Source: a virus
Taxonomy: Duplodnaviria > Caudoviricetes
Virus record (IMG/VR): IMGVR_UViG_3300020365_000001
Length of the DNA stretch: 64,000 bases
Reading direction: 5' to 3' (one strand)
Position 1 is the first letter of the stretch, and the number at the start of each line of letters is the position of its first letter. The notes below the pieces were generated by a model. It made no database searches and was not told the origin of the DNA. It worked only from the letters and a program-made list of their open reading frames with translations. Both the position numbers and the translations under genes were made by a program. Positions 15,431 to 37,767 of this stretch are shown here, in pieces.

Positions 15431-15437
15431 GAGGCAC

Positions 15438-20994: not shown

Positions 20995-21011
20995 ATTGAT
21001 CTGACTTTGTT

Positions 21012-21803: not shown

Positions 21804-22516
21804 TTCTAGTTACATTAGGAGATAGTTGGGTACGAGGTCGTTATCCACTCAAACAAAAGAATTGGATGAGAATTCTTGGTGAGCATTATAATTTCAAGTG
21901 TAACGACTTATCAGAAAAGGGTGCGTCAAACTGGAATCAATTTCGTAAGGCAACCCAGTACTTCAATCAGAACATCGATCCAAAAGAAGTCATCGTCCTA
22001 TGGGGTATCAATACTCTATACTCAGATGAGATCTACATGAATGGTAGGAATGCTTACACTCAAATGCGATTCTCTGCTCATACAATGAATCCTAGAGCAG
22101 ATCGTAAGTTCCGGCATAATAACTATGATTATTCAATCACCAGGCACTATGAAGATCATTTTGATATTGATATCATAGAAGAAAGGACTAGAGACAATAT
22201 CCGATTGTGGCAAAAGTATTTTGACATGTCTGGTATCCGTAATCTGTGGTATGATATCCATAACGAAACCAATACCATCACTGCTAATAAAGTTGTATTC
22301 CCCCATCAAGGAATGCAAGACTTAGTATCACAAACCATTGCATCTAGAAAAGTTTATGAGCAAGATCGACATCATTTCGCTACTGGTTACGTCGATTGTG
22401 ACCGTATTGGTGATTTACAGTTAGGTGGTCTAGTTGATGATGCACTCCTCCCAACACAGGATGGTCATAACGAAATCGCTATACTATTTGAAAAAGCACT
22501 GAAAGATATCTTATGA
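21800..22516 (+). CDS. SGNH/GDSL-like protein 3
   Basis: TLGDSWVRG, GASN; C-terminal LLPTQDGH. Confidence 0.72.
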   Translation: MILVTLGDSWVRGRYPLKQKNWMRILGEHYNFKCNDLSEKGASNWNQFRKATQYFNQNIDPKEVIVLWGINTLYSDEIYMNGRNAYTQMRFSAHTMNPRADRKFRHNNYDYSITRHYEDHFDIDIIEERTRDNIRLWQKYFDMSGIRNLWYDIHNETNTITANKVVFPHQGMQDLVSQTIASRKVYEQDRHHFATGYVDCDRIGDLQLGGLVDDALLPTQDGHNEIAILFEKALKDIL

Positions 22517-23295
22517 CAACATTAGTCACGATTGGTTGCTCATGGGTCAAAGGTGTTGGTGCAGCATATTCCTGCAAGAACCCAGATGATAAAGACACCT
22601 ATCAGAGTTATCGAGGCATAACGCCCCATAATGCCCCCTATGCCTGGCGAACACTTTTAGCAAAGAAGTATAACTTAGAACAACATAACCTCGCAAAAGG
22701 TGGTTCTGCTAATAAAACACAGTTCCGTCTTGCAACAGAATACTTCAATACAGTAGAAAATCCAGAAGACATTATCGTCCTATGGGGTATCACATCTATC
22801 CATAGAGACGAACTCTTCTTCAATAATATCGATAAGTATAGAGCATTCATTTTCAATCGCCATACTAAACGTCAAGAACCGTGGGAGAGAAGATCCAGGT
22901 TCAACGTCATCAATCACTTTGAAAGACACTTCAATGAAAAGAATGAATACTACCAACTTGCAGAAAATATCAAACATTGGCAGAAGTACTTTGACCTGAG
23001 GGGCATCCGCCATAAATGGTTCGATACTCTAAACCCCACAAACACCATCCATAAGAACGCCATAGTATTCCCACATGAGGGGATGCCCGACCTGATGTCC
23101 CAAATGACCGCAGAGGTTTCCGGTGAACCATGTCATGGAGATCAAATGCACTTCTCTAATTGGCTCGTAGACTCTTCAAGAATACAAAAACTCCTAGACC
23201 ATAACGTAGTCAACCCACACTCTCTCCACCCCTCTCAAGAAGGTTCTATAGTTATCGCCAACCTCCTTGACCAACATGTAGCATCTATGCTATAA
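22513..23295 (+). CDS. SGNH/GDSL-like protein 4
   Basis: TIGCSWVKG, GSAN, SLHPSQEG. Confidence 0.78.
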   Translation: MTTLVTIGCSWVKGVGAAYSCKNPDDKDTYQSYRGITPHNAPYAWRTLLAKKYNLEQHNLAKGGSANKTQFRLATEYFNTVENPEDIIVLWGITSIHRDELFFNNIDKYRAFIFNRHTKRQEPWERRSRFNVINHFERHFNEKNEYYQLAENIKHWQKYFDLRGIRHKWFDTLNPTNTIHKNAIVFPHEGMPDLMSQMTAEVSGEPCHGDQMHFSNWLVDSSRIQKLLDHNVVNPHSLHPSQEGSIVIANLLDQHVASML

Positions 23296-23317
23296 TCTTA
23301 TCACATCACTGATTGCC

Positions 23318-23548
23318 ATGTCTGAAACCACAGAGAGTAAATATAGTCCTGCACACTATCAACAAGGTAATATTCAAGTATGGGACTTCATCGCTGATCA
23401 GAACTTAGACTTCTTCTGTGGTAATGTCGTAAAGTACATCTGTCGGGCAGGTCATAAACCTCATGAATCCCAAATGGATGACCTCCGTAAAGCACAAGTG
23501 TATATTGAAAAAGCAATATTACTTGCATCTCAGTCCAGAAATCGCTAG
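23318..23548 (+). CDS. DUF3310 family protein (T7 gp1.7 nucleotide kinase-like)
   Basis: PAHY...GNVVKYICRAGHK...DLRKA pattern. Confidence 0.85.
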   Translation: MSETTESKYSPAHYQQGNIQVWDFIADQNLDFFCGNVVKYICRAGHKPHESQMDDLRKAQVYIEKAILLASQSRNR

Positions 23549-23587
23549 ACTAAGATCTAAATACTTTGATCAACTGCTGTTCTCCCC

Positions 23588-23857
23588 ATGAAGAAATGTG
23601 AGAAATGTGGTGCTACCTGGATGGAGGGTCAACTCTATTGGCAAGGTACTGGCAAACCTGGTAAAGATATAGACCTCGCTGGTCTTGTCTGCAATAACAT
23701 CAGACAAGATGACCCTGACTCCGATAAATGTATCAACCCTTCCCGTGGTCAACTCGGAGGAGATACTTGGGATTACCGTCGTGGTTTCGTAGATGGTGCT
23801 CTCTCAACACTCAAAAAAGAAAAAGAAGATCTTCGTGATCGCTTCGGTGACTTATGA
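23588..23857 (+). CDS. Hypothetical protein with CxxC
   Basis: 89 aa; CEKCGATW...DLAGLVCN...CINP; TAAATA at 23558-23563. Confidence 0.75.
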   Translation: MKKCEKCGATWMEGQLYWQGTGKPGKDIDLAGLVCNNIRQDDPDSDKCINPSRGQLGGDTWDYRRGFVDGALSTLKKEKEDLRDRFGDL

Positions 23858-24021
23858 AATATATCATTGAATACCAGGATCAATTCTTCAAGTGGCATCG
23901 CTATGGCGAGTCCCATAACGTGACATCTGCTTCCAATACCGCAAAAATCCGTTCCGTACAGTCCGGTAAGAAGTTCAGAGTCACTCAAAACGCCCAACTC
24001 ATAGAAATCTTCTACCCTTGA
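23854..24021 (+). CDS. Hypothetical protein (55 aa)
   Basis: Not in track; MKYIIEYQDQFFKWHRY...IEIFYP; ATGA overlap. Confidence 0.7.
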   Translation: MKYIIEYQDQFFKWHRYGESHNVTSASNTAKIRSVQSGKKFRVTQNAQLIEIFYP

Positions 24022-24045
24022 TATGACTGGATAGTTGAACACTTC

Positions 24046-24077
24046 TCCCCCCTCGAAAGGTACGGGGGGATTTTTTT
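24046..24077 (+). terminator. Rho-independent terminator
   Basis: TCCCCCC...GGGGGGA stem followed by T7. Confidence 0.8.
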
Positions 24078-24363
24078 ATGGGCAAAATTTTTCTAAGGGC
24101 ACTTTTAGGGGTGGGAAAAAAATTTTGATATTGATATCTTTCGTGCTCTGGGAAACGTTTGTAGGTTAGAAAGAAGGTACTTTTTTGCAACGGGCTCCGC
24201 CCGCCACAACAATAAGGGGCAAATAACTGTCCCTAAGTGTTACTAACTGTTCACGGAGTTTGTGTTAGATAGGGGGCACGATTGTTGGCAGTTGGTGTGA
24301 GGAACTGTGTGCCCCTTATCTATCACTGAGTGCTGTGTGATTCCCCCTGTGTTCGTTACAACG

Positions 24364-24422
24364 AGTATAAGCGATTTTCACGGGGTCTGTGTGACTGTTT
24401 GTGCCACTTTGTAGACCGTCAC
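24364..24422 (-). promoter_or_regulatory. Early-type promoter (palindrome plus TATACT) with no credible downstream ORF
   Basis: gtgcca-N10-cgtcac 24401-24422; agtata 24364-24369; same spacing as the other early promoters. Confidence 0.6.
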
Positions 24423-24459
24423 TAACACTAACTGTTTCGCAAGTGTGTGAACTTTGGGG

Positions 24460-24488
24460 TTGTAATCTGTGTGGAACTGTGATAGAAT
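24460..24488 (+). promoter_or_regulatory. Sigma70-like promoter
   Basis: TTGTAA-N17-TAGAAT with extended TG. Confidence 0.6.
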
Positions 24489-24494
24489 GGGAGA

Positions 24495-24630
24495 AAAAAG
24501 TGTGAGGGTCTGAGTGTTACTTAGTGGGTCTCATAGTGTTTCACGGTGTCTCATAGTGCGACCGCTAAGGTAACAACAACCACGAGGATAATGGACGACT
24601 AAGTAACACTCACGATCCTTATACGAAAAA
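24495..24630 (+). ncRNA. Candidate structured non-coding RNA
   Basis: 24500-24525 pairs with 24598-24624 (15 perfect bp plus 11 bp with 3 G-U pairs), directly downstream of the sigma70-like promoter. Confidence 0.5.
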
Positions 24631-24673
24631 GACATATATTTATTCACACATTTTTATTATCATTCAATTTTAG

Positions 24674-24713
24674 AAATATACCCCATTGAAGTGCATCAAC
24701 GGGGTGCATATTT
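24674..24713 (-). terminator. Hairpin, probable terminator of the early operon
   Basis: Minus strand ACCCCGUUGA-UGCACU-UCAAUGGGGU then AUAUUU. Confidence 0.45.
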
Positions 24714-24807
24714 AGTAGACTTTTATACACCTTCATTGTTAGCAAACTATTAGTTTTACCAATGGTTTTGTGTACCTTAGTTGATGCTAACTGATGGTGT
24801 GCGCGTT

Positions 24808-24990
24808 TCATACATTCTCCAACAATTTGATCACGTTACTATCTAGATTCTCTTGAAGATTATTTTCTTCGAGTACATCTAGGAAATGTGGTTCATGATA
24901 GTTTGACTGATCATATTGGAAGTCATTTTCATACTCATCCCATGCATCGTTGATGTTAGTTTGTGCGTTGAAATCGTTCATGATAATCAA
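24808..24990 (-). CDS. Hypothetical early protein
   Basis: 60-aa acidic ORF in operon context. Confidence 0.6.
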   Translation of the reverse strand: MIIMNDFNAQTNINDAWDEYENDFQYDQSNYHEPHFLDVLEENNLQENLDSNVIKLLENV

Positions 24991-25202
24991 TAGCGAGAGG
25001 GGATACGATTGAGGTCGATAGATGATACACAGAACCCAGCAGATTCTGTGATTTGATCAACTACTTCATCCTCATCTTCTGCGAAATAAACTGTTGCTAA
25101 TGTGGCATTGATTATGCCTTGTTGAAATTGCACTGGCAACTCAAAATCACCATCTACAAAATCAAACTGAATGGAGTCAACAACGTAGCGATTTTGTGTC
25201 AT
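24987..25202 (-). CDS. Hypothetical early protein
   Basis: 71 aa; IQFDF...DQITESAGFCV. Confidence 0.7.
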   Translation of the reverse strand: MTQNRYVVDSIQFDFVDGDFELPVQFQQGIINATLATVYFAEDEDEVVDQITESAGFCVSSIDLNRIPSRY

Positions 25203-25336
25203 GAATCAGAAGAAAGTTGGTTGTCTAGTTTTGTTTGAATAGAGTCAAATAACTCCATTTCATCATCAGTGAAGTCAGAGAACATTTGCTCCATACAATA
25301 ATAGATTAGAGCACGTTCTTCGTTGGTGATATACAT
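25199..25336 (-). CDS. Hypothetical early protein (45 aa)
   Basis: Not in track; MYITNEERALIYYCMEQMF...; ATGA overlap. Confidence 0.6.
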   Translation of the reverse strand: MYITNEERALIYYCMEQMFSDFTDDEMELFDSIQTKLDNQLSSDS

Positions 25337-25344
25337 TTGAATGA

Positions 25345-25692
25345 TCAGGCGAAAGTATAACCAGTGCGGAAAAGATTGTTTTGGAATACATCTTCGCCGT
25401 TGATTGTGCCAACAAACTGTCTCACATACCAGGTGAAATCTTTCTGGAATACACCTTCACCTGCCATGCAGAATTCTTCACAGATAGCATTGAGGCGAGA
25501 TTTTGTGGTGTTAGTTTGCCATCCACCATCGAAGATTTCTACGTCATTATCAGAAACAATGGCGATAAGATTGTCATGCAGATAAACAGTAGTGGTGCCG
25601 TATTCTGCATTGAAGTGAACACTAGTGTTGCCAGATTTCCAAGTTTCGTTGTTCTTGATGGCGGCACACATTTGCTTTTCGATCTTACGCAT
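25345..25692 (-). CDS. Conserved cyanophage early hypothetical protein
   Basis: Start at MRKIEKQM with AGGAG upstream; DGGWQTNTTKSRLNA. Confidence 0.8.
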   Translation of the reverse strand: MRKIEKQMCAAIKNNETWKSGNTSVHFNAEYGTTTVYLHDNLIAIVSDNDVEIFDGGWQTNTTKSRLNAICEEFCMAGEGVFQKDFTWYVRQFVGTINGEDVFQNNLFRTGYTFA

Positions 25693-25697
25693 GGTGG

Positions 25698-25782
25698 TGA
25701 ACTCCTGTGTTTGTTTGTTGTACCAACAATAATCGATTTTGGACCCTAAATCATTTCCATGTGCCACTTTTATAGGTGACCA
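25698..25782 (-). promoter_or_regulatory. Early promoter/leader cassette
   Basis: gtgcca at 25761, TATTGT at 25726-25731; 42 bp nearly identical to 27283-27324. Confidence 0.7.
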
Positions 25783-25894
25783 CTAATTCCTCCAAACGAG
25801 CAATTTTCTGTTCTAGATTCTCTATCGAGCGTTCTAGATTCTTGATGTGATCAACTATAGAAAGTTGATCATATAACGGATCATTTCTGTTCAT
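25751..25894 (-). CDS. Hypothetical coiled-coil protein (47 aa)
   Basis: Not in track; MNRNDPLYDQLSIVDHIKNLERSIENLEQKIARLEE. Confidence 0.55.
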   Translation of the reverse strand: MNRNDPLYDQLSIVDHIKNLERSIENLEQKIARLEELVVTYKSGTWK

Positions 25895-26084
25895 TTTGCT
25901 CCAACAAATGTGGATAGTATTCTTTCACTTCTTCGATCAATTCATCGACCGAATAACTATCATAACTGTTGCTCATGTTGTCATAAAGAATTGCCATCAT
26001 AGTTTTGATGTCCATGTCGTCCAAAATTTGGTTGATCATGTCATCTTGTAGTTGATCCCGATCGATGATATTATCCTTATTCAT
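25881..26084 (-). CDS. Hypothetical early protein
   Basis: 67 aa; ILDDMD...EVKEYYPHLL. Confidence 0.75.
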   Translation of the reverse strand: MNKDNIIDRDQLQDDMINQILDDMDIKTMMAILYDNMSNSYDSYSVDELIEEVKEYYPHLLEQNEQK

Positions 26085-26278
26085 TCTGCTGCCTCGTCAT
26101 AGATTTCATAGAACATATTCCATGCTTTTAGATCACTCACAAAAGAACTAATTTCTGCTTGATCACTAACCCAATCATATGCCATATCAATGTCGGCATT
26201 ATTATCAAGAATGAAAGATTGCAATCCTTCGAGTGCATCCAAGAATTTTGGATTGTTGTAAACAGCAGCAATAGACAT
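26081..26278 (-). CDS. Hypothetical early protein
   Basis: 65 aa; ATGA overlap. Confidence 0.7.
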   Translation of the reverse strand: MSIAAVYNNPKFLDALEGLQSFILDNNADIDMAYDWVSDQAEISSFVSDLKAWNMFYEIYDEAAE

Positions 26279-26311
26279 GATGTTAGATAAGAAAAGAACA
26301 GTTAGTGATAA

Positions 26312-26578
26312 TCAGCAGAAACAAGGCATATACTCAGCGCGAGGCATTTTGTCGGTGTTGAAGTGTGTAACTGTTGCACCCTTAGCAATTCTTGCTTGCC
26401 AATCATATTTTGCTTCAATACCTAAAACAACGCTATAAGATTTCTGACCAGTAGCACGGAAATGAACGCGACGGATGAAACGTTTCACCACAACTTTCAT
26501 ACCTTTGTTCTCATCTGCCTCAGCAATAAATGCTTCGGGAAAGTAATCAACAATGGTGGCAGAATTGGTCACTTGCAT
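26312..26578 (-). CDS. Hypothetical early protein
   Basis: 88 aa; own TTGACA-N17-TAATTT promoter at 26609-26637. Confidence 0.75.
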   Translation of the reverse strand: MQVTNSATIVDYFPEAFIAEADENKGMKVVVKRFIRRVHFRATGQKSYSVVLGIEAKYDWQARIAKGATVTHFNTDKMPRAEYMPCFC

Positions 26579-26652
26579 GAATTGAACTCCGTTGCTTTTG
26601 ACTCTTCTAAATTACAGGAGACGCAGGATGCTGTCAAGTATCAAATGATACA

Positions 26653-26820
26653 TCAAAAGACATTGGTCCATTTGTGATGCTTTGCTTCAGTGATATTTCC
26701 CTCCGCTAACAAGTTATCGCAAACATTGCAGAAAACTTGAAACTTTTCTACTTTGCTCAATGCTTTACCATCAGCACATTCTTTGATGGTTTGGATGATA
26801 ATTGCTTTTGAAGTAATCAT
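26653..26820 (-). CDS. Hypothetical early protein (55 aa)
   Basis: Not in track; MITSKAIII...FCNVCDNLLAEGNIT...WTNVF. Confidence 0.7.
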   Translation of the reverse strand: MITSKAIIIQTIKECADGKALSKVEKFQVFCNVCDNLLAEGNITEAKHHKWTNVF

Positions 26821-26858
26821 GATTTTGTGAAAAGAATTGGGTGGGAGTTAGTGTTAGT

Positions 26859-27074
26859 TTACCAGAAACATCCTTGGTGACGAGCATCAAGCATGTCAAC
26901 ATATTTCTGCCAAAGTATTTCAATTTCACCCACAGTTTCAGACAATTTCAGCAGATATTCGTCATCAGGATTCTCTACTTTCGCATAAGCATCAAGCGCC
27001 TGACCATAATACTTTCGAGCATTGATTAGGTCCGTTGCATAATCATTACCGGTGACACGTTGAAGAGTAAACAT
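26859..27074 (-). CDS. Hypothetical early protein
   Basis: 71 aa in operon context. Confidence 0.65.
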   Translation of the reverse strand: MFTLQRVTGNDYATDLINARKYYGQALDAYAKVENPDDEYLLKLSETVGEIEILWQKYVDMLDARHQGCFW

Positions 27075-27107
27075 GATGAAAAAAGAGTGATGGTTGACTG
27101 TAAAGAA

Positions 27108-27278
27108 TTAGCAGGAAACTTCCATCCATTCAATATCATTACGAGCAACAATCATTGTTTTTCCATGCTCTTCAACACTCCAAGTGTAAGCAACATCTAC
27201 GGCATGATGTTCGCTGGTGAAATACTCAGCATCGAATTGTTCGCCCTTAGGGTACACTGACCAAGAAACAAATGCCAT
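27108..27278 (-). CDS. Hypothetical early protein (56 aa)
   Basis: Start at MAFVSW with AGGAG upstream. Confidence 0.7.
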   Translation of the reverse strand: MAFVSWSVYPKGEQFDAEYFTSEHHAVDVAYTWSVEEHGKTMIVARNDIEWMEVSC

Positions 27279-27282
27279 TGAT

Positions 27283-27367
27283 TGAACTCCTGTGTTTGTT
27301 TGTTGTACCAACAATAACCGATTTCAGATGCTGTGCACGTTTATTATGCCACTAAAACATCTGGCAC
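27283..27367 (-). promoter_or_regulatory. Early promoter/leader cassette
   Basis: atgcca-N10-tggcac 27346-27367; TATTGT 27311-27316. Confidence 0.75.
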
Positions 27368-27571
27368 ATCGGTATCATCGAAATCAGCAACATCTTCGGG
27401 CATAGGCATATCATCAATGCCAGGATCATACCAGTCTGATGCATACATAATCGCATCTTTCATCTGCTCTAATTCATCCTTACGTTGCTGCATTTTGTCG
27501 ATCTGTTTATCAATCAATGCAAGGCGAATCATCACAGTGTCGAGATCCATTCCATCGTAAGTTTCGGTCAT
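27344..27571 (-). CDS. Hypothetical early protein
   Basis: Likely start MTETYDG; coiled coil plus acidic tail. Confidence 0.6.
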   Translation of the reverse strand: MTETYDGMDLDTVMIRLALIDKQIDKMQQRKDELEQMKDAIMYASDWYDPGIDDMPMPEDVADFDDTDVPDVLVA

Positions 27572-27634
27572 AATTGTTTTACCTTTGAGTGCGTGAAAAC
27601 GTGGTTGTTTTTGAATAATAGACATAAACTTTCC

Positions 27635-28078
27635 TCAGAGATAGAGATAACCGCCCGACCAATCTGCACGGGCAAAACATTCTTCACGGGATGCAATGTT
27701 CAGAAGATTGAAACGCACAATCTTTGCAGGTGATTTGAATGATGCTGGTTTGTATACTTCACCAGTCTTTTTATCAACAAAAGCATGAACAGAAAGTTGA
27801 TTGCCAGTGTTCATTACAATTTTGTGATACTTTCGCCCACCTTCTTCAATATAAAAATCATAATCACAAATGCCATTCTTCAGTTCTTCAATGGTATCTT
27901 TATGATAACTGCCGATCTCATTACCTTCAGAAATTGCACGCTTGTGATGCTTTATGCAACGCTCAATATAGTTCATTTTGAGTGTTTCGCAGAGCATCAA
28001 AGTGTACTTACGAACATTCAACTGAATTGTGTTCTTTGCATCCTGTTGTGCAACGAAATCGGCGAAGTCAGTTTTCAT
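27635..28078 (-). CDS. Conserved phage hypothetical protein
   Basis: 147 aa; GRKYHKI, SVHAFVDKKTGEVYKPAS, ADWSGGYLY. Confidence 0.85.
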   Translation of the reverse strand: MKTDFADFVAQQDAKNTIQLNVRKYTLMLCETLKMNYIERCIKHHKRAISEGNEIGSYHKDTIEELKNGICDYDFYIEEGGRKYHKIVMNTGNQLSVHAFVDKKTGEVYKPASFKSPAKIVRFNLLNIASREECFARADWSGGYLYL

Positions 28079-28156
28079 TGAAGTTTCTCAACTGTTGATA
28101 CAATACATGAAATAAGTCTCAGTGCACGTTTATTGTGCCACTAAAACTATTGTCAC
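28077..28156 (-). repeat. 80-bp promoter/leader repeat, copy 1
   Basis: 74/80 identical to 28436-28515. Confidence 0.9.
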
Positions 28157-28434
28157 TTCACATACTCTAATTTCTTGGCATTTGTCACGGAGAAGTTATT
28201 ATAGTCGCTCATACTTACTGACACGTTATTAGGAAGAACGCTAAAATCTTCCCGTAGTTGCCAGAAACCGTCACCCTGTACGATAACAGCGAAACCGAAA
28301 CATCCTGCCATTGGCATCATATAAAGACCATGCTTTTCTGCTTCTTTTAGACTACAAAACCCGCGAGCAGTTATTGTCCATGTAATGCCAAATTGATCAC
28401 CACCAAAATAAGCACAAACGAATTCAGTAGGCAT
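28153..28434 (-). CDS. Hypothetical early protein
   Basis: 93 aa, flanked by the 80-bp direct repeats. Confidence 0.7.
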   Translation of the reverse strand: MPTEFVCAYFGGDQFGITWTITARGFCSLKEAEKHGLYMMPMAGCFGFAVIVQGDGFWQLREDFSVLPNNVSVSMSDYNNFSVTNAKKLEYVK

Positions 28435-28435
28435 G

Positions 28436-28515
28436 ATTGAAGTTTCTCAACTGTTGATACAATACATGAAATAAGTTCTAGTGCACGTTTATTGTGACAC
28501 TAGAACTATTGGCAC
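28436..28515 (-). repeat. 80-bp promoter/leader repeat, copy 2
   Basis: Contains gtgaca-N10-tggcac (28494-28515) and TATTGT (28459-28464). Confidence 0.9.
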
Positions 28516-28521
28516 ACGGTG

Positions 28522-28659
28522 TTAGTTTGTGACGTAGATGTTCCTCGCATTGGTATACTTTGCTTCCATCAATTTGATGGCGTGATGAATACTCACAGCG
28601 GTGAAACTTTCTTCGATTCGGTAACCCTCAACGAGAGCACTTACGATGAATTGTCTCAT
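28522..28659 (-). CDS. Hypothetical protein (45 aa)
   Basis: Not in track; MRQFIVSALVEGYRIEESF. Confidence 0.65.
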   Translation of the reverse strand: MRQFIVSALVEGYRIEESFTAVSIHHAIKLMEAKYTNARNIYVTN

Positions 28660-28811
28660 TCTAGATCTCCTGGTAAAAACTCTTGAAATTCGTGAAAATA
28701 GTAGTCTTCAGTGATACCGAACTTTTCGCAAAGAAACTTCACTGAATCATAACTTTCCTGATCCATTTCAACAACGAAATGTTCAGTTTCAACGGTGATT
28801 ACATCATTCAT
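28656..28811 (-). CDS. Hypothetical protein (51 aa)
   Basis: Not in track; MNDVITVE...CEKFGITEDYYFHEF; ATGA overlap. Confidence 0.65.
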   Translation of the reverse strand: MNDVITVETEHFVVEMDQESYDSVKFLCEKFGITEDYYFHEFQEFLPGDLE

Positions 28812-28847
28812 GGTGAAATTTGAGTACAATGACAATATATCAGAGTC

Positions 28848-29471
28848 TTAGATAAATTGTAAGACTCCTGTGACACTTTGCGAAGCGTCTTTCTTACTAA
28901 CTCGTTGTTTTGCTCGTTGATACAATGCTTGATCACTTTCACATCCCCAGTAATGACGACCGAGACGTTTTGCACTCACAGCAGTATCACCATCTCCCAT
29001 GAATATATCAAGCACAGTATCACCAGGGATAGTATATGCGTTGATTAGTAGTTCATCAAGAGATTGACGAGATGTAGATGAATGGACGCAAGTGTAGTGA
29101 TCACTATCATTTTTGTAAGTGAAATCCTTGCCCTTTGAGTAACACCAAGCATGTTGATGTTTGTGTGCAAAGTTCTTCTTACTACGACGACCAGTTCTAC
29201 ACTCAAACACGATCTCATTCTGCTCTGTTAGTTGTTTGTTACGATTCAGAGCATACTTATACACTAAGAACGATTCATTCTTGAGTGTTCCCCACACAAT
29301 CATCATCCCATTGGGTTTCAATACACGCACACATTCTGTGGTCCATTTCATACACCAACTGAGATACTTTTTACCTCCACCAGGTGGAGGTTCAGTGAGG
29401 ACGAGATCAACAGAATTGTCCTTCAATTTACTGAGAAACTGTAAACAATCCTTGTGCTGTAATTTATTCAT
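28848..29471 (-). CDS. Degenerate beta-class N6A/N4C DNA methyltransferase, probably catalytically dead
   Basis: DCLQFL...SVDLVLT-EPPP (for DPPY), RVLKPNG, GDTVLDIFMGDGDT (for DPFxGSGTT), no HPTxKP; only 207 aa. Confidence 0.8.
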   Translation of the reverse strand: MNKLQHKDCLQFLSKLKDNSVDLVLTEPPPGGGKKYLSWCMKWTTECVRVLKPNGMMIVWGTLKNESFLVYKYALNRNKQLTEQNEIVFECRTGRRSKKNFAHKHQHAWCYSKGKDFTYKNDSDHYTCVHSSTSRQSLDELLINAYTIPGDTVLDIFMGDGDTAVSAKRLGRHYWGCESDQALYQRAKQRVSKKDASQSVTGVLQFI

Positions 29472-29998
29472 AAGTTGGCATACAATGACTTCATGAAGGG
29501 AAAGTCTTGGGGGAATCCATCAAGGAAAAATGTACCTGAGTTCACGGTTTTACCACCATGTTGGTTGTACTTCCAGAACCCATTCTCATCTTGTGCTGAC
29601 ACGAACTCATCAACTTCTTGTTTGGTTGATGAATACATCTCAACACGATCAGGATACATTGCCAGGAAGATAATCACATCATAGTCTTGACTAGTGCGAA
29701 TTTGTTGCCAACGAAACTGATCACCACCACCCCACAACATCGATCCTTTGATTTCACATCGACGACCGTTGATGATACGATCGTATTCACTTTGTTTTGG
29801 ACGAGTAACTGCGAACCCAAGATGTTTGCAGTATTCACTAACAAGTTGCTCAAAGAACTTTCCCTTGCGTTTGCTACTCATTTCTTTGTAGACACGAAAG
29901 GGAGAATCAATGTAGAGATCAGCATCACGATCATTCAATGCATCATCGTGAGTCTGATAACTTTCAATGAACTGAGCAGGAATCGTGGTGTCAATCAT
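29468..29998 (-). CDS. Type II restriction endonuclease-like PD-(D/E)xK nuclease, MseI-like (predicted TTAA)
   Basis: KGKFFE...YDRIING...EIKGS intact; SPF, FRWQQIR..QDYD and QHGG match my recollection of R.MseI; ATGA-coupled to the MTase; TTAA not found in the window. Confidence 0.8.
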   Translation of the reverse strand: MIDTTIPAQFIESYQTHDDALNDRDADLYIDSPFRVYKEMSSKRKGKFFEQLVSEYCKHLGFAVTRPKQSEYDRIINGRRCEIKGSMLWGGGDQFRWQQIRTSQDYDVIIFLAMYPDRVEMYSSTKQEVDEFVSAQDENGFWKYNQHGGKTVNSGTFFLDGFPQDFPFMKSLYANL

Positions 29999-30018
29999 GA
30001 TACTTTACTTAGGAATGT

Positions 30019-30351
30019 TCAGGACAGATCGATAACACCTGTTTTTTCGTCATTTCTAAACGGGAAAGCGACCGTGGCACCCTTACCCGTTTCCTTGGAC
30101 GAAAATTCTTGTTTGTGCAGTGGCACCACCACACTATTCCATGCTTTGATGTGAGAATTTTCCAGTTTTTGTTGCATATACGATGCAACACCTTCAATGC
30201 ACATGGCAGAGTTCAGAATTTCATCTGAATCACACTCATCACACAGTTTTTCGTTCAATTCGTGAAGCATTTGCTCAACGATCTTCAGTTGTGTGATGAC
30301 TTCATCCACGTCATTCATCACGGTCCACACCTGTTCGTAATCTAATGACAT
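30019..30351 (-). CDS. Hypothetical protein (110 aa)
   Basis: Start at MSLDYEQVW; helical. Confidence 0.7.
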   Translation of the reverse strand: MSLDYEQVWTVMNDVDEVITQLKIVEQMLHELNEKLCDECDSDEILNSAMCIEGVASYMQQKLENSHIKAWNSVVVPLHKQEFSSKETGKGATVAFPFRNDEKTGVIDLS

Positions 30352-30370
30352 GATAAAGATAAAATAAGAG

Positions 30371-30399
30371 AAAAAAAATGCCACCGGTGTGGTGGCATT
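30371..30399 (-). terminator. Rho-independent terminator
   Basis: Minus strand AUGCCACC-ACACC-GGUGGCAU then a U run. Confidence 0.85.
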
Positions 30400-30420
30400 A
30401 TGAACCTGATCAGAGAGTGA

Positions 30421-30642
30421 TCAGACAGCAACCTGCTGGAGGTTGCCCTCACGGCGGTACTTAGCAATCAGGCGACCAACCGACTCGCCTTTGGCGATGG
30501 TGGTCTCAAGGTCGGAGCGAAGGACGGAAGCATCCTTAGCAACGAAGTCATAAGCGGTGTCCTTAGAGGTGAACTGGACAGACACAGCGTTGTCGGTACC
30601 GAAGTCGATAGCAGCGATTGCGGAAGAACCAGTGATGTTCAT
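30421..30642 (-). CDS. Small KTSC-like protein
   Basis: 73 aa; SSAIAAIDF...VQF...Y...SVGRLI resembles the KTSC pattern. Confidence 0.55.
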   Translation of the reverse strand: MNITGSSAIAAIDFGTDNAVSVQFTSKDTAYDFVAKDASVLRSDLETTIAKGESVGRLIAKYRREGNLQQVAV

Positions 30643-30716
30643 GATGAAAAAGTGAAATGTAAGTTGGAGCAGTGACGATCTTTTGGTGGGGCGGCGTCTC
30701 TCCCCTTGTTGTCCTA

Positions 30717-30774
30717 ATTATAGCGCCTGATCAACCTGGCGCTCTTGGATGGGTGACAGTTCGTCATCTGGCAC
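30717..30774 (-). promoter_or_regulatory. Early promoter
   Basis: gtgaca-N10-tggcac 30753-30774; TATAAT 30717-30722. Confidence 0.75.
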
Positions 30775-30903
30775 ATCCTCGTTGACTCCAATCATGGATT
30801 CGTAGTAGGTGTCATAGTCGATGCCGATGTAGCGGGCGAGTTCTTCGTAGTCATTGTGACAGCGCAGTTCTCGTTGCAGTGCAAGGTAATCGGAGAGATC
30901 CAT
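30718..30903 (-). CDS. Hypothetical protein (61 aa)
   Basis: Start at MDLSDY; DYEELARYIGIDYD. Confidence 0.65.
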   Translation of the reverse strand: MDLSDYLALQRELRCHNDYEELARYIGIDYDTYYESMIGVNEDVPDDELSPIQERQVDQAL

Positions 30904-30925
30904 GGAAGCAATGAGGCAGACAGTA

Positions 30926-30957
30926 ATCTTAGCACGGGTTGAGACATTTCTCAACCC
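30926..30957 (-). promoter_or_regulatory. Sigma70-like promoter overlapped by a perfect palindrome
   Basis: TTGAGA-N17-TAAGAT; GGGTTGAGA-catt-TCTCAACCC at 30936-30957. Confidence 0.55.
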
Positions 30958-30995
30958 TTATTCTGTTTGCCTCATAACACTGAGGCGTATGTTAT

Positions 30996-32099
30996 TTAGA
31001 TAGACTCATCTTCAACAATGTCCACATGTTCATCCAGTTTAGTATACAACTGCATGAATGACAGTTTGGTATCATCATCGAAACGATTCAAGCACATTTC
31101 GATTGCTTTCATCTTGTCACCAAAGATGCTATATGCTCGCACAATATGCACCAGGCGACGAGTTGAAATAATTTCATCGATGCCACCATCATTGAATGTT
31201 TTGCGTACAATGTCTGCCCAATCTACAAGATGCTTGTAGAAGTCAGTATGATCACCAGTAGCAGGAATGTTGAGAGATTCAGCAACATTAGCGAGAATCT
31301 TCTTCTCTACTGCTGGTGTTGGATACTGTTGCTCGAAGGTGATAGGGAATCGCTCAAGAAATGCTTCATTGAGAACATTTGTGCCAATGAATCGTCCATC
31401 ATCAGAACCCTTACCTTTTGTGTTGGCAGTAGCAACAACATTGAAACCAGGTGCTGGTTTGATATGTTCACCGATCTTCTTCAGGAAGACACCATTACCT
31501 TCGAGAATAGATTGCAGGCACAAAATCTTATTTGATGCCAGGTCAATCTCATCTAGCAGCAACAATGCTCCACGTTCCATTGCATCAACAACAGGACCAT
31601 TATGCCAGACAGTCTCACCATTTACCAGGCGGAAACCACCGATAAGATCATCTTCATCCGTCTCAATAGTGATATTCACACGGATACATTCTCTGCCAAG
31701 TTGTGCACATGCTTGCTCAACACCAAATGTTTTACCATTACCAGACATGCCAGTAATAAACACTGGATAGAACTGGTGAGATTGAACAACTTTCTTCAGG
31801 TCAGTAAATCCACCAAAGGTAACAAAAGTATTATCTTTGGTAGGAATCAGCGACTCTTTAGTTTTAGTCTGAACTGGTGTCTCTTTTACATCATACTGAA
31901 CACTACCATCAGGATTAGCGGTAGATGTTAGAGTCCACTGCCCTCGCTTGGTTTTATACTTGTTCAGATACTTGGTGAGTGTCTGATAACCAACGTCATG
32001 AGATTCGCAGTATTGCCTAACAATCGTGGCATCAATAGCATTGCCATAAGTGTCACGCAGTTGCTGAATGTGGTGGTCACCGTTGATAGTCCGTGGCAT
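30996..32099 (-). CDS. cobS: CobS/MoxR-like AAA+ ATPase
   Basis: GMSGNGKT (Walker A), LLLLDEID (Walker B), TDEDDLIGG, NEAFLERF, ISTRRL. Confidence 0.93.
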   Translation of the reverse strand: MPRTINGDHHIQQLRDTYGNAIDATIVRQYCESHDVGYQTLTKYLNKYKTKRGQWTLTSTANPDGSVQYDVKETPVQTKTKESLIPTKDNTFVTFGGFTDLKKVVQSHQFYPVFITGMSGNGKTFGVEQACAQLGRECIRVNITIETDEDDLIGGFRLVNGETVWHNGPVVDAMERGALLLLDEIDLASNKILCLQSILEGNGVFLKKIGEHIKPAPGFNVVATANTKGKGSDDGRFIGTNVLNEAFLERFPITFEQQYPTPAVEKKILANVAESLNIPATGDHTDFYKHLVDWADIVRKTFNDGGIDEIISTRRLVHIVRAYSIFGDKMKAIEMCLNRFDDDTKLSFMQLYTKLDEHVDIVEDESI

Positions 32100-32120
32100 T
32101 GCTTTGTTTGAACTGAAGTT

Positions 32121-32179
32121 AGTATAAGGGATGAATGGGTGGGGTGAGGTGGCGATTGTGCCACCTCTATAAGTGGTCA
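32121..32179 (-). promoter_or_regulatory. Early promoter
   Basis: gtgcca-N10-tggtca 32158-32179; TATACT 32121-32126. Confidence 0.7.
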
Positions 32180-34288
32180 GGCGACCATTTCTACAAACTG
32201 TTTGGTGATATACTTGTTACTTTTCTTGTTTTTGAACATTTTACGAAATGCTTTACTAACATCTTTCTTCTCACTGCTAGTAACATCTAGTGTGTCATCT
32301 TCGCACAAGTTCCTGTTAGGAATACCAAACCACTTGTCGAAACCATTAGATGTGAAAGATACACTGCCATGCTTCTTCAATTCAGAACGCATTTGATCGT
32401 AGTTCTCATAACTATCTGTTGCATACCAACGATAGAAGTTACTCATCTCAGATCCGTGCAAGATTCTGAATGAAACTATGTTGCAGTTGTTGTTATCACG
32501 CTTTATTGCGCGAACGAGCGCGTCGGTAACGGACGGACCCATGCCATCGATATTGAAAGTCTTGCTTTTGTGGCGAATAACAGTATTATGGCGCACGGGA
32601 ATGTGACACTTACGCTCGCGATCATCGTATCCCATACGAATCACATTGTATCCCAATTCATTACCCTCACCATCAGTCAGGTACACAACATTACATTTCT
32701 GAGTCTTAGTCTGCTGTTGGAACTTCTTCACAATTTGATTCATACACACCAGGGACTCATTGATAGGTGTGCCAGACAATTCCATGCCCAAAGGTGACAA
32801 CATGTTCCTCAAAGTATGCACAACCTTCCATACATTCAGCAGTTGATCTTCAAAGTCTTTTGTCTTCATATTGCTGCTGATAAGATTCATCAACCGGAAG
32901 GTATCTTGAATCTTGATGTCATGCAACTTCCATTCTTTTACTGGTTTGCGTGACTCATAATCTTCCTGCATCTTCCATGCTTCATTAGTGAAAGCATAAA
33001 CTTCAAAGGGAATGTTTACCTTACGGCAGAACCACACCAGTTGAAACAGTTGTTTGATAGTAGGCAACATTTCATCTGCCATAGATCCACTCCAGTCAAG
33101 TACAAACAACAGGGAGTGATTCTTACCATCAGTAGTTGTTGCTACTTTACGGAACACATCTTCATTGTATTTGTATGAATGAAGTTTACCAGTGTCAAGT
33201 ACACCAGTGCGAGAGACTGTGGTCCTTGCATATGCATCAGCAGACTTACGCATTTCAAACTCTTTTACCAACAAATTCACATCACGTTGTGCACTTGTCT
33301 TGAATTGTTTGAACTCAGTGCGCTTCTGCTCATTCCACTGTTGGATAACATCCTCGCGATCACTATACTTTTGTCCGAGAACTCTACCAAAATGGTCCTC
33401 TACATGCGCCTTGATCTTATCAACAGGAACGATAACATTCTCAAGCACAACATCAGGCATCGTCACATAAACAGGACGCTTGGCATGTTGATTGCGAAGA
33501 TCTTCTAGGTTCTTATCATATGCTTTCTGGGTTGCAGATTCATCATCATTCTCCTCAACGTTGCCATCATTACATGCTTCAGTATCATCGTCATCATATT
33601 CTTCAGACTCAACATCACTGAAGGCATCACTATCACCAGGTTCCTGCTCATCTTCAGGAGACTGATCCATAGTTGTTTCACCATCACCAGGTGCACTGTT
33701 CTGTGGTGGTTGTGGCATAGGTGTAGATTCTTGCTGCTGTTCCTTACTCAGCAGATAACATGCTAGGGAGAGATCAAGAACTTCTTCAAATGTTTCAGCG
33801 TTGCTGATACTGGTGACCAGTTCATTCTCACGATCATTGAAATCAATGTCATAGAATGTACCGACCTTGAAGTATAGATTCACACGGTCGATGAATGACA
33901 GTTGATTCACATCTTTCTGTGAAATCTCGAAGAAGTCCTTATCATTCAGATAACGGTATCCTTTGAAGAAATCCCTGTTCATGCCAGGATACCGCTTCTT
34001 CATCAACTTCTCGATGCGAGCATCTTCTACCACGTTGACATAATCACCAGGAACTTTCCTGTATTTGTCTTCACGTTTCCAGTCACGCAATTCTGTAAAC
34101 AATGCATGTCCTACCTCATGAGCAACCAGCATGTCATAAACATATGCTGGAACATTGTCCCAAATAGGTAGAGTCAAGACGCGACCATCAATGTCAAAAG
34201 ATGCTGTTGACACCTGGCGGTGTTCTACGATAAGATTCTCAGTTGCCAGGAGTCTGGCAAGCATCCCTTGAATTTCAGTGGTCGCCAT
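32177..34288 (-). CDS. CobT-like protein: HExxH metallopeptidase-like domain, acidic linker and vWA domain
   Basis: HEVGH, NVVEDARIE; MIDAS LDWSGSM, GTP, LTDGE. Confidence 0.88.
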   Translation of the reverse strand: MATTEIQGMLARLLATENLIVEHRQVSTASFDIDGRVLTLPIWDNVPAYVYDMLVAHEVGHALFTELRDWKREDKYRKVPGDYVNVVEDARIEKLMKKRYPGMNRDFFKGYRYLNDKDFFEISQKDVNQLSFIDRVNLYFKVGTFYDIDFNDRENELVTSISNAETFEEVLDLSLACYLLSKEQQQESTPMPQPPQNSAPGDGETTMDQSPEDEQEPGDSDAFSDVESEEYDDDDTEACNDGNVEENDDESATQKAYDKNLEDLRNQHAKRPVYVTMPDVVLENVIVPVDKIKAHVEDHFGRVLGQKYSDREDVIQQWNEQKRTEFKQFKTSAQRDVNLLVKEFEMRKSADAYARTTVSRTGVLDTGKLHSYKYNEDVFRKVATTTDGKNHSLLFVLDWSGSMADEMLPTIKQLFQLVWFCRKVNIPFEVYAFTNEAWKMQEDYESRKPVKEWKLHDIKIQDTFRLMNLISSNMKTKDFEDQLLNVWKVVHTLRNMLSPLGMELSGTPINESLVCMNQIVKKFQQQTKTQKCNVVYLTDGEGNELGYNVIRMGYDDRERKCHIPVRHNTVIRHKSKTFNIDGMGPSVTDALVRAIKRDNNNCNIVSFRILHGSEMSNFYRWYATDSYENYDQMRSELKKHGSVSFTSNGFDKWFGIPNRNLCEDDTLDVTSSEKKDVSKAFRKMFKNKKSNKYITKQFVEMVA

Positions 34289-34309
34289 GTCTGTGTTTCA
34301 ACTGAAGTC

Positions 34310-34367
34310 AGTATAGTCCTCAGGGTGCCGGATGCTCTCCCGGCGATGACGCTTCTGAAACTGGTAC
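34310..34367 (-). promoter_or_regulatory. Early promoter (degenerate palindrome)
   Basis: TATACT 34310-34315; atgacg-N10-tggtac; leader aactgaagt(c/t)agtata shared with the cobS promoter. Confidence 0.6.
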
Positions 34368-34694
34368 ACGCTTGACGATCTGTTTAGAGATGTTGGTGTA
34401 GGGTGCTGGGGTGAGTTCGATTGATCCGGTTCTAATGGATTCTTTAGATTCTTTCTTGAGTGATGCTGCCAGTTTGGAACCATCATGCGGCAATACCTCC
34501 TGATCTACTCTCACACATATATTTACATCTCTCACAGGTGGCACTGTGCCAGTACCTCTACATACACACACTGTCATGCCATATGTTGAGAAGAATGTAA
34601 CAATGCCATAGTGTCCACCAACCTGCACTACATCACCAACACTCCATTCATTTTCTTCATAGATTTCTTTGATAGAGTTCCACTCAGGCATCAA
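34320..34694 (-). CDS. Hypothetical protein
   Basis: 124 aa; ATGA overlap with the upstream gene. Confidence 0.6.
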   Translation of the reverse strand: MMPEWNSIKEIYEENEWSVGDVVQVGGHYGIVTFFSTYGMTVCVCRGTGTVPPVRDVNICVRVDQEVLPHDGSKLAASLKKESKESIRTGSIELTPAPYTNISKQIVKRVPVSEASSPGEHPAP

Positions 34695-35206
34695 TCTCTT
34701 CTCCGTATTTGATCAAGTTTCTGTGCATGAATTTCCTCTGGATAGGAATAGTATTTGAACTCAATCCAATTATCCCATGGATCTTTTATTGTGGTGCGAT
34801 GACACCTAACATTTTGCCCATGTAAATGTGCCTCACTTGGATCTATCTTTTTAGGTACCAAGAAGTTGTACTTACTATCAATTACATTGATCTCAGGATG
34901 ATCCTTGCAATGATTCACAACCTCAAAGTATTCTTTCTTATCCAAGAAGACAGGACCATTATGTCTTGGCAACCTTGAATGTTGCTGAGGTACAGATGTT
35001 TCTCCTTGCAGTACACTTATGTGGTGACCAGCAAATGAAAAGATGAACCCAGGATTGTGTGACCCATCTTCAACATTGATAGCAAATCTTTGACAGAATC
35101 TACAACCAAGCACATCACAATACCATCTGATTCCTTCCTCAATGTCAGGAATAGTGAACGCCATGTGCCATATCGTTTTGGTATGACTGTCAGCGAGGAT
35201 TGTCAT
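34691..35206 (-). CDS. VOC/glyoxalase-superfamily protein
   Basis: WHMAF...WYCDVLGC, FAGHH, PRHNG, DPWDNWIEFK. Confidence 0.85.
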   Translation of the reverse strand: MTILADSHTKTIWHMAFTIPDIEEGIRWYCDVLGCRFCQRFAINVEDGSHNPGFIFSFAGHHISVLQGETSVPQQHSRLPRHNGPVFLDKKEYFEVVNHCKDHPEINVIDSKYNFLVPKKIDPSEAHLHGQNVRCHRTTIKDPWDNWIEFKYYSYPEEIHAQKLDQIRRRD

Positions 35207-35240
35207 CGACTAACTACATCTGTCACTAATTTATTATATC

Positions 35241-35954
35241 ATGTATAAGGGAAAAAGCACGTTATGTGTCATTCCGGCACGGATGTCGTCAGGTAGATTC
35301 CCTGGCAAACCCATGGCGCTCATCAATGGCACCCAGATGGTCCTGAGAGTGGCAGAAATTGCATCTAGGTCAAAGTATGTTGACAACGTTGTAATCGCCA
35401 CTGAGGACGATTCTATCGTAGATCTGTGCTGGGAGGCAGGTTATGATGCTTTGCTGACAAGTAAGCACTATACATGCACACATCGTGTTGCTGAGGTAGC
35501 AGCACATCAACCATACGATTACATCTTCAATCTACAGGGTGATGAACCACTCACTAAACCTGAGTGGATAGACGAAATGATTGCCTATGGTATTGATAAC
35601 GATGTTGATGTATTGCAGAGTTCACGAAGATTAGAGGATGGAGAGATCGAAGACGAAGATGTTGTCAAAATGATAGAGAATAACGGTAAGGTTATTCATA
35701 TGCAACGCTCACCTGATGTGGTGTGTGATAATATCACGGTGCAATTAGGATTATATTTTTATAGACGAAGTGTTATTGTTGATTTCCCTAATTGTGACAT
35801 GACCTTTGTCAAGTATTGGAAGGGTCTTGATACTATTGGATTTATTGGTAAATATGATGTAATACCATACGATCTAAAGTGTGGTAAAATCAGAGCAGTT
35901 GACCGTGCCTGGCACATCCAAGAGGTAGAATGGTTGTTGAACCTGAAGAACTAA
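35241..35954 (+). CDS. kdsB: CMP-KDO synthetase-like cytidylyltransferase
   Basis: IPARMSSGRFPGKPM, IATED, THRVAE, NLQGDEP, VVK, GLYFY, AVD motifs. Confidence 0.85.
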   Translation: MYKGKSTLCVIPARMSSGRFPGKPMALINGTQMVLRVAEIASRSKYVDNVVIATEDDSIVDLCWEAGYDALLTSKHYTCTHRVAEVAAHQPYDYIFNLQGDEPLTKPEWIDEMIAYGIDNDVDVLQSSRRLEDGEIEDEDVVKMIENNGKVIHMQRSPDVVCDNITVQLGLYFYRRSVIVDFPNCDMTFVKYWKGLDTIGFIGKYDVIPYDLKCGKIRAVDRAWHIQEVEWLLNLKN

Positions 35955-36793
35955 GAGTTGCAGCAGATATGCTCAGCAGTGCTACCAACGTGGCATTGCT
36001 GGGCACTGGTGGTAATCTTGCCATTGCACAACACATGGCAAGTGACATTTACCGTCACATGAATAAGTTCTGCTTTGCACCAGACAGTGTGAATCAGACT
36101 GCACTGGGTGGTGATTATGATTGGAAGATTCCCTGGTTAGATTATGCTGCTAAGTCAGCAGATCTCATCATTCTTATCACTTGCAGGATACAATCACCTG
36201 CTGTATATGCTGTTGAAGCACTAGAAAAAGAATGGCGTAGATCACCACCATTCAGAACTCATGTGCTTATTATTGCACCAGAGAAACACGAATATCTTCC
36301 TACATTGGTGGTTGAATCTAATTTCTATCACGAATTTGAAGTATTTGCAATGATGTCCATCTATAACATGATGGAAGAGTGTGGTGTTGAGTTACCAGCA
36401 CTACCACGTCATGCACCTACAAAAGATATTAGTTCACGATGTGATGTATATTGTGTTGATATTGATGGCACACTGACTGAACCACATGATGGTGATCCAT
36501 GGAACGCAGTACCACGAATGGATCGCATTGATAAGATCAATAAAATGTATGATAACGGTGCTACGATATATCTACAAACTGCACGTGGATTTATCGTTAG
36601 TGCACAGAGATACCCTGATGACCCACAAGCACAGCAACGTAATGCTGACTACCTTTGTCGCAGCAGGACTGAAGCACAGTTGAAAGAATGGGGAGTAAAG
36701 TATCACAAACTATTCTTTGGTAAACCACGAGCATCAGTTTATGTTGACGATCGTGGATCACATGATAGTGAGTTCTTTGCTTTACTAGAGTAA
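35930..36793 (+). CDS. SIS (sugar isomerase)-like domain fused to a HAD phosphatase
   Basis: GTGGNLAIAQHMASD N-terminally; VDIDGTL, TARG, FGKP, YVDDR C-terminally. Confidence 0.8.
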   Translation: MVVEPEELRVAADMLSSATNVALLGTGGNLAIAQHMASDIYRHMNKFCFAPDSVNQTALGGDYDWKIPWLDYAAKSADLIILITCRIQSPAVYAVEALEKEWRRSPPFRTHVLIIAPEKHEYLPTLVVESNFYHEFEVFAMMSIYNMMEECGVELPALPRHAPTKDISSRCDVYCVDIDGTLTEPHDGDPWNAVPRMDRIDKINKMYDNGATIYLQTARGFIVSAQRYPDDPQAQQRNADYLCRSRTEAQLKEWGVKYHKLFFGKPRASVYVDDRGSHDSEFFALLE

Positions 36794-37762: not shown

Positions 37763-37767
37763 TTAGA

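Follow-up and report, generated by a model that had tools for sequence, protein, structure and literature searches.

A TTAA-free marine cyanomyovirus sequence harbouring a putative TTAA-directed Type II nuclease and a degenerate methyltransferase homolog

The 64,000-nucleotide stretch of DNA analysed here (hereafter the window; IMG/VR record IMGVR_UViG_3300020365_000001, Duplodnaviria, Caudoviricetes) originates from a T4-like marine cyanomyovirus, whose CobS and neighbouring genes match those of Synechococcus and Prochlorococcus phages. It encodes a PD-(D/E)xK nuclease, the gene of which is coupled to that of a degenerate DNA methyltransferase (MTase) homolog, and it is completely devoid of the tetranucleotide TTAA. 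We consider it fairly probable that this phage-encoded Type II nuclease targets TTAA and that the phage protects itself by means of a target-free genome instead of methylation. The system would represent a Type II restriction-modification (R-M) system or solitary restriction endonuclease (REase) whose self-immunity has another foundation than usual. This reading is built on the anatomy of the gene pair, the loss of motifs in the MTase homolog, the genome-wide absence of TTAA and a tight, graded association of this absence with the cassette, all of which are direct observations.

TTAA occurs on neither strand of the 64,000 bases, as compared to 291 ± 16 sites expected from dinucleotide shuffles and 193 expected from a second-order Markov model. 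An earlier note on this DNA, which was made from the sequence alone, had likewise found no TTAA and had named normal TTAA counts as evidence that would speak against its interpretation; these were looked for and not found. The absence concerns each type of sequence in which the tetranucleotide could arise: T precedes none of the 22 TAA stop codons, A follows none of the 107 TTA codons, and AA never follows any NTT codon, while the 8.2 kb of non-coding DNA contain TTA 128 times, TAA 126 times and TTAA not once. Since TTAA is missing across stops, codon junctions and non-coding DNA alike, it is avoided in every context. Moreover, the 112-kb IMG/VR record G008, which is 98% identical to the window over the entire window length, is also free of TTAA (0/321; here and below, site counts separated by a slash are observed/expected).

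Both open reading frames (ORFs) of the gene pair, their ATGA overlap and the lack of DPPY in the MTase homolog are as the earlier note had described them (Table 1). The nuclease is a free-standing ORF among small early-type ORFs, is coupled to the MTase gene, lies within no intron or intein and interrupts no conserved target gene. It is matched by the PADLOC REase_II profile PDLC03515 (E=1.3e-19) and by phrog_6927; Pfam and NCBIfam contain no family for it, a sequence search of the PDB returned nothing meaningful, and a scan of bacterial genomes with the nuclease alignment found nothing. Its family comprises 956 clusters (50% identity, E≤1e-3), which are mostly marine and viral. The distant members are all named 'hypothetical', and one of them resides in a bacterial R-M/defence island together with BglII-like, HindVP-like, C5 and N6/N4 MTase and DndB neighbours. 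Within the family, E50, D73, E82-x-K84, S86, Q99, R101 and Q146-H147-G149 vary little or not at all, and the window copy keeps all of them; the catalytic residues D73 and E82-I-K84 are invariant over 20-30 homologs. The likeness of the nuclease blocks to R.MseI, on which the earlier note had drawn, is putative; no solved MseI structure was among the sequence or structure matches.

The AF2 model of the nuclease adopts a PD-(D/E)xK fold with a predicted local distance difference test (pLDDT) score of 92.9, for which Foldseek retrieved I-Ssp6803I, NhoI, EcoRV and PvuII at TM-scores of 0.4-0.5 and no close solved relative. In addition, the protein is predicted to form a homodimer (ipSAE 0.66 versus 0.37 for the best control) with a symmetric interface comprising residues 3-56 and 116-122. 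The ipSAE mark was calibrated on 30 proteins with structures solved as pairs, 20 of which reached it, and on 23 with structures solved as single chains, only 1 of which did; at least 94% of the contacts agree between the homodimer runs and the pLDDT of the partner is at least 88. As far as a model can indicate, such a symmetric dimer would thus fit the requirement of a Type IIP enzyme acting on a palindrome. The ratio of nonsynonymous to synonymous substitution rates (dN/dS) amounts to 0.15 in comparison with an 88%-identical relative. Taken together, invariant catalytic residues, purifying selection, a confident fold and the predicted dimer make the nuclease look functional, and it is probably enzymatically active. 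As a side observation, the homologs P0022 and P0029 and other 276-residue matches (58-63% identity) are extended at the N-terminus by a further domain of some 100 residues, which belongs to no known family.

The MTase homolog is clearly matched by PF01555 (E=4e-27, 96 bits versus a cut-off of 26.7), yet it fails the catalytic (motif IV) and target-recognition features which define this family. Motif IV reads EPPP in place of DPPY; in two relatives (P0121/P0122, 86-88% identity), which have the deletions described below in common with the window copy, it reads EPPS. Compared to relatives of 245-255 amino acids, 14 residues are missing right after motif IV and 35 in the target-recognition region, HPTTKN is changed to HSSTSR, and motif I is altered from GSGST to GDGDT, so that the segment FMGDGDT keeps the phenylalanine and both glycines and replaces two conserved serines by aspartate. 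D155 and E178 are retained. In 10 intact relatives, DPPY, the 14 plus 35 residues and HPTxK are invariant. On the other hand, no copy has a disrupted frame, the dN/dS against the homolog in L002 (0.18, with a dS of 0.44) is equal to that of the nuclease, and the AF2 model contains a Rossmann core with a pLDDT of about 90, residues 85-135 being of low confidence. A decaying pseudogene is ruled out by this dN/dS value. Hence, the earlier designation of the methylase as 'decayed' applies to its catalytic and target-recognition motifs, which are lost, but not to the gene as such, the ORF of which is conserved and encodes a core that is folded according to the model.

Because the remnant is under purifying selection, it probably fulfils some non-methylating role. 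An alternative is that the shortened protein still methylates a target of some kind (a different motif in DNA, the DNA of the host, RNA or a protein), or that it acts as an S-adenosylmethionine-binding regulatory partner of the nuclease, and that it hence belongs to the functioning mechanism and is no relic. Selection as strict as that on the nuclease, the confidently modelled Rossmann core with its motif I glycines, D155 and E178, and the maintained ATGA translational coupling would all agree with such an activity. These features are opposed by the loss of the motif IV aromatic residue and D/N/S position, of 14 plus 35 residues and of HPTxK, by sister lineages and the cultured phage S-ShM2 (see below), which keep the nuclease and zero TTAA without an MTase gene, and by the fact that self-methylation would have no substrate in a TTAA-free genome. 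On balance, a living methyltransferase or regulatory partner is unlikely.

Table 1. Positions of the features discussed in the text, in window coordinates.
Feature	Position	Strand	Remark
TTAA-free genome segment, putative 'immunity' component	1..64000		0 TTAA vs 193-291 expected
PD-(D/E)xK Type II restriction-endonuclease-like gene, 176 aa	29468..29998	-	specificity for TTAA inferred
Degenerate beta-class N6-adenine DNA methyltransferase homolog, 207 aa	28848..29471	-	motifs lost, ORF conserved
ATGA stop/start overlap (4 bp), nuclease to MTase homolog	29468..29471	-	read from sequence

The relation between TTAA loss and the cassette was assessed in 38 viral loci collected via the nuclease family and in 80 loci collected via the neighbouring CobS gene, the latter sample being blind to the nuclease; 49 CobS-anchored loci served as controls for a scan of tetramers. 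An intact DPPY MTase is present in 27 of the 38 nuclease-anchored loci, directly downstream of the nuclease or overlapping it wherever coordinates were read, and the order of nuclease followed by MTase as well as their overlap or abutment are shared by relatives with an intact MTase. The position of the cassette in the genome differs between phages. Among the CobS-sampled loci the ratio of observed to Markov-expected TTAA is approximately 0.7-1.0, except for the window clade (L039, L040 and L042, each 0) and L045 (10/90). A general cyanomyovirus trait is ruled out as the cause of TTAA loss by the control ratio of about 0.9. In an unbiased scan of the 256 tetramers, no word sets nuclease-bearing loci apart from control loci as well as TTAA does. 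The pooled counts amount to 0/510 for loci with a dead or absent MTase, 858/2561 (0.34) for loci with an intact one and 8762/10039 (0.87) for the controls, with median ratios of 0.00, 0.31 and 0.90, respectively (Mann-Whitney p: dead/absent versus controls 7e-6; intact versus controls 7e-10; dead/absent versus intact 1e-4). The correlation of nuclease presence and MTase decay with TTAA depletion, which the earlier note had proposed to look for in related cyanophages, is therefore present, and loci with a dead or missing MTase are completely depleted.

Three states of the cassette can be distinguished by synteny, and the nuclease is intact in all of them. In the first, represented by the window, L001, L002 and L006, it is accompanied by a degenerate MTase; in the second (L003/L040 and L005) the MTase is deleted and the nuclease is followed by the next conserved ORF; in the third, which comprises most other loci, the MTase is intact. 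L005 belongs to G007, a genome of 192,351 bp that is 100% complete according to CheckV and contains no TTAA (0/693). No PF01555 or PF00145 MTase was found anywhere in this genome, and its sole MTase gene is of the Dam type (PF02086, 79732-80454). None of these phages has an unusual GATC count.

In the nuclease tree, the window clade, which comprises 7 rows and has a support of 99/99, is wholly TTAA-free, and its sister group, L009-L011, combines an intact MTase with TTAA counts from 2/92 to 15/138. Since this sister clade is already heavily purged in the presence of an intact MTase, the purge seems to begin under a still functional MTase, which seems to be lost later, in line with the succession of site purge and dispensable methylase that had been suggested for the window. 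At least four independent lineages possess the nuclease without a functional linked MTase, and all of them have virtually zero TTAA: the window clade, L037 (no MTase; 0/18), L033 (no MTase; 2/54, both sites lying at most 250 bp from the contig end) and the cultured phage S-ShM2. The latter carries a solitary nuclease homolog that is 32% identical and keeps all conserved blocks, no PF01555 gene was found in its 179,563 bp, and TTAA is absent from its whole genome (0/586). Its sister S-BM3 has the nuclease together with an unlinked MTase and a TTAA count of 76/552. Solitary nucleases are also carried by the cultured phages S-RIM14 and S-SSM2. Whether marine cyanomyoviruses have on several occasions converted a Type II R-M cassette into an offensive nuclease that needs no methylase, ratcheting TTAA out of their genomes, losing or repurposing the MTase and discriminating self from non-self purely by sequence, is in our judgement an evenly balanced question.

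The corresponding mechanism would start from an ancestral R-M cassette with a beta-class N6-adenine MTase, an arrangement still encountered in many cyanophages, in which an orthodox-type, homodimeric PD-(D/E)xK Type II enzyme would cut the palindrome TTAA. Carriage of the nuclease would select against TTAA in the phage genome even under a working methylase, and once the last sites had gone, the methylase would have become superfluous for protection. Subsequently, the MTase would have shed its catalytic and DNA-recognition parts in the window lineage and would have been deleted in sister lineages. The phage genome would then be immune for want of substrate, with the host chromosome and the DNA of co-infecting phages remaining cleavable wherever they contain TTAA. 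By analogy with endonucleases II and IV of phage T4 and with the R-M systems of chlorella viruses, such a nuclease may serve host-DNA breakdown, nucleotide salvage, host shut-off or the exclusion of competitors.

A number of observations weigh against a phage nuclease that cuts TTAA and has thereby purged its own genome. TTAA as the putative cleavage site is derived from site statistics, and the genome coverage for the phage of the window consists of 64 kb plus the 98%-identical 112-kb record G008. Divergent nuclease homologs with IINHVS instead of WQQIR, in which D...ExK is kept, occur in L137 (19989-20525; ACG-2014f) and L178 (6297-6830; S-SSM4), and the TTAA counts of these carriers are near normal (100/143 and 82/83, respectively). 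Membership in the nuclease family by itself hence does not predict the site, and the TTAA association is restricted to the WQQIR-type clade, which hints at a contribution of the WQQIR block to the recognition of the site or at a different role of the IINHVS branch. Conversely, depletion is also seen in the apparent absence of the nuclease. The 122-kb record G004 carries the MTase family and a TTAA count of 175/606 but no member of the window's nuclease family, and an unrelated ORF of 213 amino acids sits at the place of the nuclease. An arrangement of this kind is seen in L045 (12313-14664), where an intact DPPY MTase of the same family is overlapped upstream by an unrelated 213-residue ORF and followed by a 319-residue SPPY MTase. 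Searches of Pfam and PADLOC gave no match for the ORF of L045. Among the Atlas feature neighbours of the 213-residue ORF are viral clusters with ThaI or SmaI REase domains in 15-18% of their members, which is a lead only, and the ORF may represent a non-homologous nuclease swapped into the cassette. Moreover, L042 and L160 have TTAA counts of 0/24 and 3/30 and no nuclease in the syntenic slot; 7-8.5 kb of them are known, and a search for longer contigs of the L042 lineage yielded only pieces of this size. Finally, other palindromes have been lost without a known phage nuclease: the CCGG count is 0/92 for S-BM3 and 1/123 for S-ShM2, and hardly any GACGTC or GTCGAC is present in any of the sampled cyanomyoviruses (controls 1/39 and 2/36). 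Because such complete purges occur without a known phage nuclease, the removal of a 4-mer by an external enzyme is possible in principle. The notion that a complete purge proves a self-encoded enzyme is ruled out by the CCGG and GACGTC examples.

These losses, together with the depletion of RGCY words in nearly all loci and the TTAA-poor L042 and L160 with their nuclease-free slot, are points for an explanation in which an external TTAA enzyme of hosts or competing mobile elements drove the purge, the phage nuclease being incidental, with a different specificity or role, and the MTase being a former anti-restriction orphan for which there was no more use once the sites had gone. This explanation is opposed by the distribution of the depletion, which among the 80 sampled relatives is confined to cassette-bearing phages and which is graded by the state of the MTase, contrary to what would be predicted for a protective orphan MTase. 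Furthermore, the nuclease has been retained under purifying selection after MTase loss in four lineages. A comparison of phages with the same recorded host, Synechococcus WH8102, leads in the same direction: S-ShM2 is free of TTAA, but Sf-CH8, which has neither nuclease nor MTase, retains 36/45. The earlier note had regarded equally TTAA-free relatives without the nuclease as pointing to a host enzyme, and Sf-CH8 with its normal TTAA is a nuclease-free relative of the opposite kind. S-SRM01 also lacks nuclease and MTase and has a count of 78/90. Since Sf-CH8 and S-SRM01 keep TTAA in the absence of the cassette, a host TTAA enzyme as the driver is argued against. We regard an external enzyme as quite improbable, and the activity of the phage nuclease itself, not that of a host enzyme, as the likely driver of the purge.

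It is very improbable that we are dealing with a free-standing homing or 'selfish' endonuclease whose target is long and rare, or in any case with no 4-cutter, and that TTAA loss is coincidental: the best structural match is indeed the PD-(D/E)xK homing endonuclease I-Ssp6803I (E 1e-4, TM 0.41-0.51) and the cassette occupies varying genomic positions among phages, but dozens of loci consistently show the nuclease in tandem with a Type II MTase, and the nuclease is matched by a Type II REase profile, has a distant relative within a bacterial R-M island, lacks an intron, intein or conserved target gene as insertion site, and is associated with TTAA as the single most discriminating tetramer. With respect to the earlier note as a whole, its observation is confirmed and its interpretation, in which the phage destroys foreign DNA by a 4-cutter and is protected by its own sequence, is partly supported.

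Several further words are underrepresented in these phages. RGCY words are depleted 3-10-fold in the window (AGCC 8/110, GGCT 9/71, GGCC 7/55, AGCT 19/140), and this depletion extends to nearly all sampled marine cyanomyovirus loci, those without the nuclease included (pooled control ratios 0.30-0.34). RGCY avoidance is a general feature apart from TTAA loss and resembles a CviJI-like site set. CAATTG (0/15) and CTGCAG (0/13) are missing from the window, and G008 has counts of 5/26 and 0/25; both words are normal in G007, S-ShM2, S-BM3 and the controls, so that the avoidance of these MfeI-like and PstI-like sites is lineage-specific. CCGG, which is normal in the window (87/85), is absent from G004 (0/35), as are CGCG and GCGC in their entirety; the CCGG, CGCG and GCGC losses could be further purges driven by hosts or by phage nucleases. 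TTCGAA has a count of 0 in all five nuclease-bearing genomes examined (controls 85/131), and AGTACT is absent from G007 (0/35) and S-ShM2 (0/46).

The system can be compared with several known ones. With an orthodox Type IIP R-M system of the MseI/Tru9I class, which recognizes TTAA, it shares a small PD-(D/E)xK nuclease with a predicted homodimeric state and with site statistics pointing to TTAA, and, in relatives of the window, an overlap of the restriction gene with the gene of a beta-class N6-adenine MTase. It differs in that the MTase of the window is degenerate, or absent in sister lineages, in that protection would consist in the absence of sites, and in its location in a lytic T4-like phage instead of a bacterium. 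Endonucleases II and IV of phage T4, encoded by denA and denB, destroy host DNA, with the hydroxymethylcytosine-containing phage genome being intrinsically no substrate. In both cases, self would be discriminated from non-self without site-specific methylation; however, T4 relies on a global base substitution, whereas the phage of the window is proposed to have erased one tetranucleotide from DNA of ordinary bases. Phages are also known to avoid the R-M sites of their hosts, an example being the GATC-free Staphylococcus phage K, from which a short palindrome is likewise fully gone. There, the selecting enzyme belongs to the host, whereas here the loss tracks a phage-carried nuclease and a nuclease-free phage of the same host keeps TTAA. 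Chlorella viruses, in turn, encode Type II enzymes that are thought to degrade host DNA. They resemble the phage of the window in the viral origin of the enzyme, but rely on heavy methylation by active cognate MTases. The closest precedent for a phage REase gene without a cognate MTase is provided by a survey in which 12 solitary REase genes were counted in 831 phages and an MTase acting in trans or a lack of expression was suggested (Oliveira, Touchon & Rocha 2014, PMC4176335); in contrast to these, the present case comprises a target-free genome backed by comparative data and a series leading from intact R-M systems. A literature search of incomplete coverage revealed no report of TTAA avoidance or of a TTAA nuclease in cyanophages, and no description of a phage REase that is protected by the absence of its own site.

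In bacteria, the intact phage MTases have their nearest homologs (70-72% identity) among the orphan MTases of metagenome-assembled genomes (MAGs) of Chloroflexota/Dehalococcoidia, where the surrounding TTAA counts are normal. Two meta-epigenomic studies, of freshwater and of marine communities, detected N6-methyladenine in TTAA of Chloroflexi and attributed it to M.Sth20745I-like MTases (PMC6329791, PMC8919816). The phage MTase family may thereby be tied, indirectly, to TTAA methylation via Chloroflexota. A phylum-wide search of Chloroflexota gave a single match, and a large protein search with the Chloroflexota MTase retrieved no named reference protein. In the Dehalococcoidia MAG G012, contig C34 contains at about 1,144,000-1,164,000 a tandem run of approximately 16 MTase-like ORFs of 386-483 amino acids, each of which matches the C-terminal two-thirds of a PF01555-type profile.

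A restriction enzyme is the textbook example of a 'poison' that needs a methylase as 'antidote'. Solitary phage restriction genes have been counted without an explanation (PMC4176335). In the phages considered here, the antidote appears to have been replaced by genome-wide sequence editing, with 0 of approximately 600-700 expected sites left in complete genomes, and intermediates with intact, degenerate and deleted methylases are still extant in the ocean, the pattern being found in at least four lineages. The cultured phages S-ShM2, S-RIM14, S-SSM2, S-BM3 and Sf-CH8 make the system readily testable. If the proposed mechanism holds true, it would constitute a new route by which viruses with unmodified DNA degrade host DNA or exclude competitors, in that a phage could shred the DNA of its host or of a competitor by means of a 4-cutter despite the ordinary bases of its own genome, and what is left of the MTase may by now serve a new purpose other than catalysis. 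Moreover, the specificity of uncharacterised nucleases would become predictable from 'holes' in the k-mer spectra of their carriers, and the cyanomyoviruses would represent a natural experiment that reveals how strongly the composition of a genome is shaped by a nuclease which it encodes itself.

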